Virus record (IMG/VR): IMGVR_UViG_2541047428_000018
Strand: one strand, 5' to 3'
Length of the DNA stretch: 8,103 nt
Source of the DNA: a virus
Lineage: Duplodnaviria; Heunggongvirae; Uroviricota; Caudoviricetes
Every line of letters starts with the position of its first letter. The first letter of the stretch is position 1. The notes under the pieces are model-generated. The model was not told the origin of the DNA. It saw nothing but the letters and a program-made list of their open reading frames with translations, and made no database searches. Below are positions 4,496 to 5,952 of the stretch, in pieces. A program made the translations under genes and the position numbers.

Positions 4496-4942
4496 CGCGA
4501 TAACGGTCAAAAATTATGGCGCTGACACTTTTGTGCCACTGGAGATGACTGTACCTAAGTTCAGGGGAGAAGAACACGTCCGGTGGGATGGTCGGGCCAG
4601 ATTTAAAGGGCAGGTCATGGCTCCAGCCTGTACGCTGGCAATGGAGGCTGCCTGGCGGGAAATTGATATGGGAACCACGCCACTCAGGGATTTACTGCCG
4701 GTCCAGAGAATAAATTCCTGTTACGGTTACACCACTGTGATCTTGCAAGTGCAGGAAAGTAGGTCTACACGGTAACGCGAGTGCGTGTAACTTTTGATGT
4801 CATTCCCGTAGAAACACCGGACAAATTTTCGCTGACAGGTCATGCAGAAGGTATAAATCTGCAGATTATGGACAATTACGGATATCCGGCAAGAGCCGGA
4901 AAAAGCATGCCGCCTCTAATTCTCAGTGGAAGATGGACTTGA
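4464..4942 (+). pseudogene. Possible decayed fimbrial major-subunit-like gene remnant (frameshifted, no signal peptide or proper start)
   Basis: Frame 0 (4464-4775) contains RFKGQVMAPACTLAMEAAWREIDMGTTPLRDL, resembling the mature N-terminus of chaperone-usher pilins (FimA HFKGEVVNAAC...VQLGQVRTASL). A different frame (4763-4942) continues with TFDVIPVETPDKFSLTGHAEGINLQIMDNYGYPARAG. No credible start or ribosome-binding site; rare codons present. Weak, pattern-based. Confidence 0.2.
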
Positions 4943-5001
4943 TTATACTCATTGCATTGTCAGAAATAGTTATCCATTAAAGGCTGGCTATTCCAAACAG
5001 G

Positions 5002-5029
5002 ATGTTGATTACAAAAATGTAATCAACAT
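5002..5029. repeat. Perfect inverted repeat, 12-bp arms with 4-bp spacer (ATGTTGATTACA-AAAA-TGTAATCAACAT)
   Basis: Read directly from the sequence. Lies in the AT-rich region about 165 bp upstream of the binding-protein gene. Could be a regulator binding site or an AT-rich hairpin. Confidence 0.7.
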
Positions 5030-5193
5030 GTAAGGTTTATACTCTTCAATATGCGTATAATTTTCCTTATTTTGTTGACTTTAAATAACAAGCTATGCAC
5101 GAGGTAAAGTCGGATAAGTTTATCTGGATGTAATATATATTATTTGTAGTGTTTATAACTTTATTTCATGATAACCAATAAAAGGAGTTTTTT

Positions 5194-5952
5194 ATGAGGA
5201 ACATAATGGCAGGTTTTTTAATATTCCTGTCTTCTGCTGCTTATGCTGATATCAATCTGTATGGTCCTGGTGGCCCGCATACAGCCTTGCTTGATGCAGC
5301 CAAACTTTATGCCGAAAAAACAGGTATTATAGTGAACGTTCATTACGGCCCACAGAACAAATGGAATGAAGATGCCAAAAAAAATGCAGATATCTTGTTT
5401 GGCGCATCAGAACAATCTGCTCTGGCTATCATTCGGGACCATAAAGACAGCTTCAGTGAAAAAGATATTCAGCCTCTTTATCTGCGAAAAAGTATTTTAC
5501 TGGTAAAGAAAGGTAATCCTAAAAATATCCGGAGTATTGACGACCTGACCAGACCTGGGATTGGCGTAATTGTTAATGATGGTGGTGGTACCAGTAATAC
5601 ATCAGGCACTGGCGTCTGGGAAGATATTGCCGGACGTAAAGGGAATATAGAAACTGTCGCCGCAATCCGAAAAAATATTATTTTATATGCGCCCAATAGC
5701 GGAACTGCACGTAAGGCTCTTGAGAATCAGCCTGGAGCAGATGTCTGGATAACCTGGGCTGACTGGGCAGCCAGTAATCCAGAAATTGGTGATGTCGTGG
5801 AAATAGCGCCAGACTACGTGATATGGCGTGATATGAACATTACAGTACGTCAGGATGCAAATGATGAAACCCGTCGATTTGCAGAATGGCTACAAACCGA
5901 TGAAGCGGCGCCTGCATTCAAAAAATATGGCTGGACCAGGAAAGGCACTTGA
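5194..5952 (+). CDS. Orphan periplasmic substrate-binding protein, ModA-like (molybdate/tungstate-type) fold, 252 aa with Sec signal peptide
   Basis: Ribosome-binding site AAAGGAG (5181-5187) 6 nt before the ATG. Signal peptide MRNIMAGFLIFLSSAAYA then DINLYG. Colinear by eye with E. coli ModA (ADILFGASEQ against ADLFISADQ; C-terminus AFKKYGWT against IFKRYGFT) and of similar mature length. No permease or ATPase gene in the window. Gene and upstream region visibly AT-rich. Confidence 0.82.
   Translation: MRNIMAGFLIFLSSAAYADINLYGPGGPHTALLDAAKLYAEKTGIIVNVHYGPQNKWNEDAKKNADILFGASEQSALAIIRDHKDSFSEKDIQPLYLRKSILLVKKGNPKNIRSIDDLTRPGIGVIVNDGGGTSNTSGTGVWEDIAGRKGNIETVAAIRKNIILYAPNSGTARKALENQPGADVWITWADWAASNPEIGDVVEIAPDYVIWRDMNITVRQDANDETRRFAEWLQTDEAAPAFKKYGWTRKGT

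Follow-up and report, generated by a model that had tools for sequence, protein, structure and literature searches.

How soluble binding proteins that lack a transporter promote colonization is a mechanistic question common to three enteric pathogens, in which the proteins concerned are AcfC, PEB3, and Paa. AcfC of Vibrio cholerae (VC_0841; PDB 4jb7) is periplasmic, binds sulfated glycosaminoglycans or glycans and mucin in enzyme-linked immunosorbent assays, and alters both chemotaxis to mucin and intestinal distribution (PMC5976639). PEB3 of Campylobacter jejuni is represented by several crystal structures (PDB 2hxw, 3fir, 3fj7, 3fjg, 3fjm). For Escherichia coli, a review places adfO (z2053) on OI-57, notes its resemblance to Paa and its constant accompaniment by ckf (z2054), and describes an adfO mutant of O157 with poor adherence to HeLa cells and lowered release of several secreted proteins (PMC8565820); adfO has also been equated with paa (PMC10562709), and loss of Paa/AdfO lowers attaching-effacing or HeLa-cell adherence (PMC8565820, PMC10562709). 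Here we analyze the gene at 5194–5952 of an 8,103-nucleotide stretch of tailed-phage DNA (Caudoviricetes; IMG/VR virus record IMGVR_UViG_2541047428_000018), the whole of which we refer to as the window. A first-pass annotation made from the letters alone had read this gene as an orphan periplasmic binding protein of the ModA fold carried as a prophage moron. The explanation that we favor, and consider highly probable as a whole, is that it is the known paa cargo gene of an OI-57/PPompW lambdoid prophage and that its product would act through the ligand-binding mechanism proposed below.

The gene is the known virulence-associated gene paa

Sequence comparison identifies the open reading frame as the already known virulence-associated gene paa (adfO) and not as a new gene. 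Its product is 100% identical to RefSeq WP_001449026.1 ('AcfC family adhesin Paa') and to the protein cluster P0001 (616 members) of the same name, and it matches phrog_11834, an unnamed PHROGs family, with E = 4e-176. GenBank phage records of PPompW prophages carry it as 'porcine attaching-effacing associated protein Paa/adherence factor'. At the nucleotide level, megablast matched positions 4780–6100 in 624 of 5426 complete E. coli genomes, with 100% identity to annotated paa, and of the 628 E. coli records with a match, 563 had a best place of at least 99% identity; carriers include enterohemorrhagic and Shiga-toxin-producing E. coli of the types O157:H7, O26, O103, and O111. Given the 100% identity, a wrong sequence comparison is not a realistic way of overturning this assignment. 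It is thus not an uncharacterized orphan but a published gene of the AcfC/PEB3 family, in which two homologs have solved structures. Since paa is a routine virulence-typing marker for Shiga-toxin-producing, enteropathogenic, and enterotoxigenic E. coli, its presence in a prophage window adds nothing new in itself.

The prophage context agrees as well. Between Paa/AdfO of O157:H7 EDL933 (z2053, OI-57) and the window, protein, DNA, and prophage context are the same and the gene itself shows no difference; the synteny of z2053 and z2054 (adfO-ckf) recurs in the window as paa followed by hok/sok. In strain E2865, the paa prophage adjoins ompW and has nleA at its opposite end, with the order int, xis, exo, dicB, ydfC, a helix-turn-helix (HTH) repressor, Cro-like and YdaT-like genes, followed by the DnaT-like O, P, DUF1627, a small open reading frame, a frameshifted fimbrial gene, paa, and hokD, and to the right of hokD by DUF968, RusA and Q, tRNAs, lysis genes, and nleA. 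Within a lambdoid prophage, the gene has the replication genes (DnaT-like O, P, DUF1627) on one side and DUF968, RusA, and Q on the other; this placement stands as first annotated, as does the description of a self-contained, AT-rich moron. To the right of hok, the window departs from OI-57: the module at 6516–7283, which holds a BOF gene, derives from a different type of lambdoid prophage, and identity in DUF968 is no higher than about 88%.

Paa is a predicted exported member of the AcfC/PEB3 family

The N-terminus of Paa reads MRNIMAGFLIFLSSAAYA followed by DINLYG. Its core is hydrophobic and its cleavage site is of the A-x-A type, and the predicted mature N-terminus aligns with the first residue of the crystallized PEB3 chains 2hxw and 3fj7. 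The mature protein would comprise 234 residues (25.8 kDa, isoelectric point 6.0) with no cysteine, and Paa is consequently not a lipoprotein. We accordingly regard Paa as a soluble protein whose Sec-dependent export is predicted from these features. The full-length match to the Pfam family SBP_bac_11 (PF13531; E = 5.5e-34, residues 20–247 against profile positions 1–226 of 227), taken with the signal peptide and the 252-residue frame, bears out the earlier description of a complete secreted binding protein.

Within this fold, sequence comparison assigns Paa to the AcfC/PEB3 family, with a class-II solute-binding fold. The structures of PEB3 (E = 1.2e-81, Paa residues 11–248, 53.8% identity) and AcfC (E = 3.5e-81, residues 16–248, 51.9% identity) are matched almost end to end, such that solved homologs at more than 50% identity span the whole of mature Paa. 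The family signature is a mature start of the form D-[IV]-N-L-Y-G-P-G-G-P, present here as DINLYGPGGPH. All of 38 aligned homologs with 51–92% identity have G24, P25, and G26, and at least 90% of them keep G27 and P28; the GPGGP motif that had been picked out from the letters (residues 24–28) is thus a conserved element of the family. Equally invariant are S134, T136, S137, G138, T139, and G140, which lie in a loop (S134–G140) that aligns with S136–G142 of PEB3 and that we presume to bind the anion. Work by Min and colleagues in 2009 reportedly found that T138 and S139 of PEB3 contact its ligand and that mutating them abolishes ligand stabilization.

Paa and PEB3 have in common the D-[IV]-N-L-Y-G-P-G-G-P-H motif, the SNTSGTGVWED loop, and the status of orphan binding protein; PEB3 differs in being N-glycosylated, at a sequon within DFNVS that corresponds to DSFSEK in Paa, in having K135 in place of T133 of Paa, and in being chromosomal, near cdtABC in the Campylobacter locus examined, and not phage-borne. 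AcfC shares the motifs, has a demonstrated periplasmic localization, and is carried, again with no transporter, on a virulence island of horizontal origin. It differs from Paa in belonging to the acf cluster, which ToxT regulates, on the Vibrio pathogenicity island; there it lies 3' of the chemoreceptor gene acfB, and the role reported for it is one in mucin chemotaxis and not in adhesion (PMC5976639).

The molybdate- and sulfate-binding proteins ModA, Sbp, and CysP, which also match SBP_bac_11, are more distant. They have the same two-lobe class-II fold, a similar length, and anion ligands, and show weak full-length profile similarity (E of 1e-5 to 1e-6), whereas Paa scores far below the curated cut-offs of their models, the binding-site motifs differ, and no ATP-binding cassette (ABC) partner genes accompany Paa. 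A profile of the Paa family retrieves PEB3 at 1e-120 and AcfC at 2.6e-110, as against E = 1.8e-6 for a sulfate-binding protein and E = 1.3e-5 for the full length of the ModA structure 4kd5. The ModA equivalog TIGR01256 gives 18.3 bits on Paa against a cut-off of 62.5, and the further ModA models NF002920, NF002918, and NF007958 give 11.7–17.7 bits against cut-offs of 253–470. The Sbp/CysP models (NF008022, 22.6 versus 288; TIGR00971, 21.5 versus 155.5; NF008106, 19 versus 308) match only locally, at residues of about 93–146. Membership in the ModA/WtpA/TupA group is accordingly rejected. The first-pass annotation's 'ModA-fold' is thus right at the level of the fold, and its ModA-like colinearity survives as remote homology, with ModA a distant cousin and not the closest family; its caution that the ligand might be unlike that of ModA was reasonable in light of the TIGR01256 score.

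No dedicated transporter gene accompanies paa or its homologs in the contexts examined

Neither the window nor 10 other contexts, comprising prophage, plasmids, and chromosomes from six genera, contain a dedicated ABC permease or ATPase partner, and in particular neither the window nor any related locus examined has the modB permease and modC ATPase genes. Thus, the earlier observation of no permease or ATPase in the window extends to homologs elsewhere, and the orphan reading withstood the comparison set against it, namely whether homologs always lie beside a permease and an ATPase. No permease or ATPase lies beside paa in E. coli prophage, including the O157 locus, and no transporter lies beside the paa allele of two IncF plasmids, in one of which the allele sits between IS1 copies and adjoins a heat-stable enterotoxin gene. 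The same absence holds for the Edwardsiella and Francisella chromosomes and for the Salmonella plasmids. It holds also for the Campylobacter chromosome, in which the homolog is near cdtABC; in Campylobacter sp. (L010/L011), the PEB3 ortholog lies two genes 5' of these cytolethal distending toxin genes. In the toxin-coregulated pilus (TCP)-like island of Vibrio, which is also without a transporter, the order is toxT, an open reading frame, the acfC homolog, a further open reading frame, and tagA; the genes listed for this island include, beside toxT, the acfC homolog, and tagA, those for CZB and BOF domains. In Aeromonas, where again no transporter was found, the homolog lies beside a chaperone-usher fimbrial cluster. 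This cluster encodes a TcfC-type usher, a FaeA-like regulator, and DsbA (L013/L014), with a small H-NS-like gene nearby in L014, and as a fimbrial neighborhood it echoes the fimbrial remnant beside E. coli paa.

We therefore reject, on the neighbors of the homologs in Edwardsiella, Enterobacter, Francisella, Campylobacter, Vibrio, and Aeromonas and on the Salmonella and E. coli plasmid contexts, the notion that paa is an operon fragment that has lost its permease and ATPase; AcfC, PEB3, and Paa constitute a genuinely orphan binding-protein family. In E. coli, paa is moreover a self-contained cassette, which is also present as a diverged allele on IncF virulence plasmids. These alleles align with the window across 5000–6020 only (5000–6019 and 5008–6020 by blastn), and this limit defines a mobile unit consisting of about 190 bp of upstream sequence, the gene, and its terminator.

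Proposed function of Paa and the alternatives

We propose that, once Paa is exported, the lobes of its fold would close on a small group of phospho- or sulfo-anionic character, which might be borne by a free host-derived metabolite or by a sulfated mucin or glycan. The anion-bound protein would then promote early colonization and adherence as an accessory factor, without feeding a transporter, and the phage might benefit in that paa would raise the fitness of the lysogen in the gut. Among the published evidence, a statement on the PEB3 ligand (PMC12469816) was counted in favor of this explanation. The nature of the Paa ligand bears also on whether the label 'adhesin' is right.

Several points weigh against this proposal, and they concern the mechanism, which is in doubt, and not the identity of Paa, which is not. 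To our knowledge, no ligand has ever been determined for Paa itself. The K135 of PEB3, at the position of T133 in Paa, is also said to affect ligand stabilization. A soluble periplasmic protein without an anchor or a known route of export across the outer membrane would make an odd adhesin, and AcfC was without effect on adhesion (PMC5976639). The claims of the primary Paa papers (An 1999; Batisson 2003; Ho 2008) are taken here via reviews. Finally, one Enterobacter bugandensis contig (L007) has a complete ABC system 690 bp 5' of the homolog; this system has a binding protein of its own, and another contig with the same homolog protein is without it. Paa might act by direct contact with host glycans as an adhesin, by signaling as a sensor, or by feeding an unlinked permease.

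The alternative that survives best casts Paa as a periplasmic sensor or co-receptor that, with ligand bound, would signal to a partner such as a chemoreceptor, a kinase of a two-component system, or a secretion system, so that adherence and secretion would change indirectly. It is likened to the proposal for AcfC and the chemoreceptor AcfB, and is favored by the orphan status of Paa, by the periplasmic AcfC acting on chemotaxis to mucin and not on adhesion (PMC5976639), and by the lower release of secreted proteins in the adfO mutant, which suggests an indirect, envelope-level effect (PMC8565820). However, no chemoreceptor or kinase gene travels with paa on the prophage or the plasmids, and no signaling partner is known in E. 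coli; we judge this alternative improbable, if compatible with the favored explanation, because both assume the same ligand-binding step. 

A transport role is less probable still. Here, Paa would be the binding protein for a phosphorylated metabolite such as 3-phosphoglycerate or phosphoenolpyruvate (PEP), with an ABC or other permease for it elsewhere on the E. coli chromosome, and the virulence phenotypes would be metabolic side effects. The solute-binding fold and the invariant ligand loop are what such a role would lead one to expect, but no dedicated permease or ATPase is adjacent in the prophage, plasmid, and chromosomal contexts examined from the six genera, and a lone gene moving between prophage and plasmids would need a universal partner, of which none is known. 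The non-transport readings are ranked above this one because the cassette moves alone between replicons.

That Paa serves the phage itself, in superinfection exclusion or anti-phage defense through sequestration of a periplasmic component, as the first-pass annotation had speculated, is very hard to credit: the sole point in its favor is the position as a prophage moron beside hok/sok, whereas none of the PADLOC defense families matched at E ≤ 0.01, the same cassette resides on enterotoxin plasmids, homologs occupy virulence loci in Vibrio and Campylobacter, and the published phenotypes are of adherence and host colonization. We give practically no credence to a ModA/WtpA/TupA-type molybdate or tungstate binder left over from a broken transporter operon, which the common fold and size and the remote match to the ModA structure would allow, given that the matches to PEB3 and AcfC surpass that to ModA by about 100 orders of magnitude, that the curated ModA models stay far below their cut-offs, and that there are no modBC remnants beside a paa that is intact and 100% identical across serotypes.

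Expression signals and organization of the cassette

The features of paa and its surroundings are collected in Table 1.

Table 1. Features of the paa cassette and adjoining loci, in window coordinates.
Feature	Coordinates	Strand	Basis or remark
paa / adfO coding sequence	5194–5952	+	252 residues; precursor 27.7 kDa
Predicted Sec signal peptide, residues 1–18, cleavage between AYA and DINLYG	5194–5247	+	hydrophobicity profile, no Cys, PEB3 mature start
Ribosome-binding site AAGGAG, 6 nt 5' of ATG	5182–5187	+	AGGAG kept in most aligned alleles
Intrinsic terminator: hairpin 5951–5979, then U-run 5980–5984	5951–5984	+	folding, allele comparison
AT-rich upstream (promoter) region of paa, 251 bp, 27.9% GC	4943–5193	+	composition; plasmid alleles share it from 5000 on
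Candidate -10 hexamer TATAAT, no good -35 partner	5056–5061	+	read from the sequence; tentative
Codons for S134-N-T-S-G-T-G140, presumed anion-binding loop	5593–5613	+	homolog alignment, PEB3 loop
paa cassette proper (upstream region, gene, terminator)	5000–6020	+	IncF plasmid alleles are 86–89% identical
Perfect inverted repeat ATGTTGATTACA-AAAA-TGTAATCAACAT, 12-nt arms 100% complementary	5002–5029	.	repeat search; candidate operator or hairpin
Fimbrial-subunit pseudogene, frameshifted and with an internal stop, directly 5' of paa	4501–5034	+	RefSeq annotation; intact 86%-identical genes
hok/sok type I toxin-antitoxin locus (ckf / hokD), hok coding sequence 6288–6443	6141–6443	+	Rfam, Pfam, annotation

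As first annotated, paa possesses a ribosome-binding site and a terminator of its own; the former is a strong one. The terminator hairpin directly 3' of the stop codon folds with -13.3 kcal/mol (z = -3.6), which none of 200 shuffles equaled, and is followed by UUUUU. The allele of plasmid pSTEC388_3 keeps this hairpin with both arms different in sequence, and such retention supports a real terminator; the terminator pattern scan taken alone was not significant (1 found against 0.9 expected). The AT-richness claimed for both the upstream region and the gene is strong for the former and moderate for the paa frame itself (43.9% GC, with 0.35 at third codon positions), as compared with 49–51% for the flanking phage DNA.

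On the side of initiation, a consensus scan yielded no convincing promoter for paa: the sigma-70 search gave a single weak site at 4920–4949, which falls outside the conserved cassette, and shuffled sequences yielded more sites than this. The candidate TATAAT hexamer, which is identical across three aligned E. coli alleles, went uncalled in that scan because it has no -35 match. Judged from the composition of the 28% GC promoter region, silencing of paa by H-NS is plausible; a literature search covering titles and abstract openings returned no statement on regulation of paa by H-NS or Ler. The inverted repeat at 5002–5029 lies at the left edge of the cassette common to the IncF plasmid alleles and is conserved in pSTEC388_3 and for the most part in pCFS3246-1, but absent 5' of more distant homologs. 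It shows no recognized known binding-site consensus and could be an operator for some regulator or a hairpin. These elements enter into a bolder and tentative variant, which we think rather unlikely: Paa might not be an adhesin but a periplasmic sensor, borne by phage and plasmids, that would detect a phospho- or sulfo-anion of host origin (such as 3-phosphoglycerate, PEP, or a fragment of sulfated mucin) and tune secretion, motility, or adherence via a partner, with expression gated by some regulator at the conserved 28-bp palindrome (5002–5029) within an AT-rich, possibly H-NS-silenced promoter.

Neighboring genes and prophage mosaicism

Directly 5' of paa, RefSeq annotates a 'fimbrial protein; frameshifted; internal stop' (in L002 at 5001–5534, and also in L001), and Pfam gave no match to either fragment of this pseudogene. 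In about 260 other E. coli records, on chromosomes and on plasmids of enterotoxigenic E. coli (L018, L019), intact copies at 86% identity serve as the second subunit gene in chaperone-usher operons under PapB/FocB control, and there the next gene is that of the usher and not paa. The prophage cargo region is thus pieced together from a scrap of a fimbrial operon and the paa cassette. In one such locus (L019, 1–4342), an intact related fimbrial operon adjoins the phosphoglycerate-sensing genes pgtCBA, of which PgtC is an orphan sensor resembling binding proteins. PgtC offers a precedent for a sensory role of transporter-less binding proteins; the adjacency itself, with an IS21 remnant in between, is probably coincidental.

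On the other side of paa, hok/sok is the constant OI-57 companion of the gene, outside the cassette; Rfam places sok (RF01794) at 6141–6290 with 103.9 bits, and the hok product matches the Pfam family HOK_GEF (E = 4e-23). Between the paa terminator and hok/sok lies a perfect 24-bp palindrome without a spacer, CCGATATGGGAATTCCCATATCGG, at 6072–6095. Up to position 6515, but no further, the window is 99.7% identical to OI-57-type prophages. The 770 bp that follow (6516–7283) come from a module that the same genomes commonly have in their other lambdoid prophages, and include a gene at 6563–6907 for a secreted OB-fold protein of the BOF/YgiW family (114 residues; PF04076, E = 1.9e-33); in O157 genomes, other lambdoid prophages commonly carry this hok-BOF-DUF968 module. 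The part of the window to the right of 6515 reflects ordinary lambdoid mosaicism. Among the complete genomes of the collection, none matches the window over its full length, and the best match covers 91% of it at 98.4% identity. A BOF-domain gene also occurs about 5 kb from the AcfC homolog in the TCP-like island of Vibrio (L012, 11795–12184), maybe by coincidence.

At the left of the window, the immunity region (1549–2100 and 854–1261) encodes a cI-like HTH repressor on the minus strand, a Cro/DicC-like gene, and a YdaT-family protein. It resembles those of Rac/Qin-type defective prophages, and YdfC is encoded at the left edge (1–219, minus strand).

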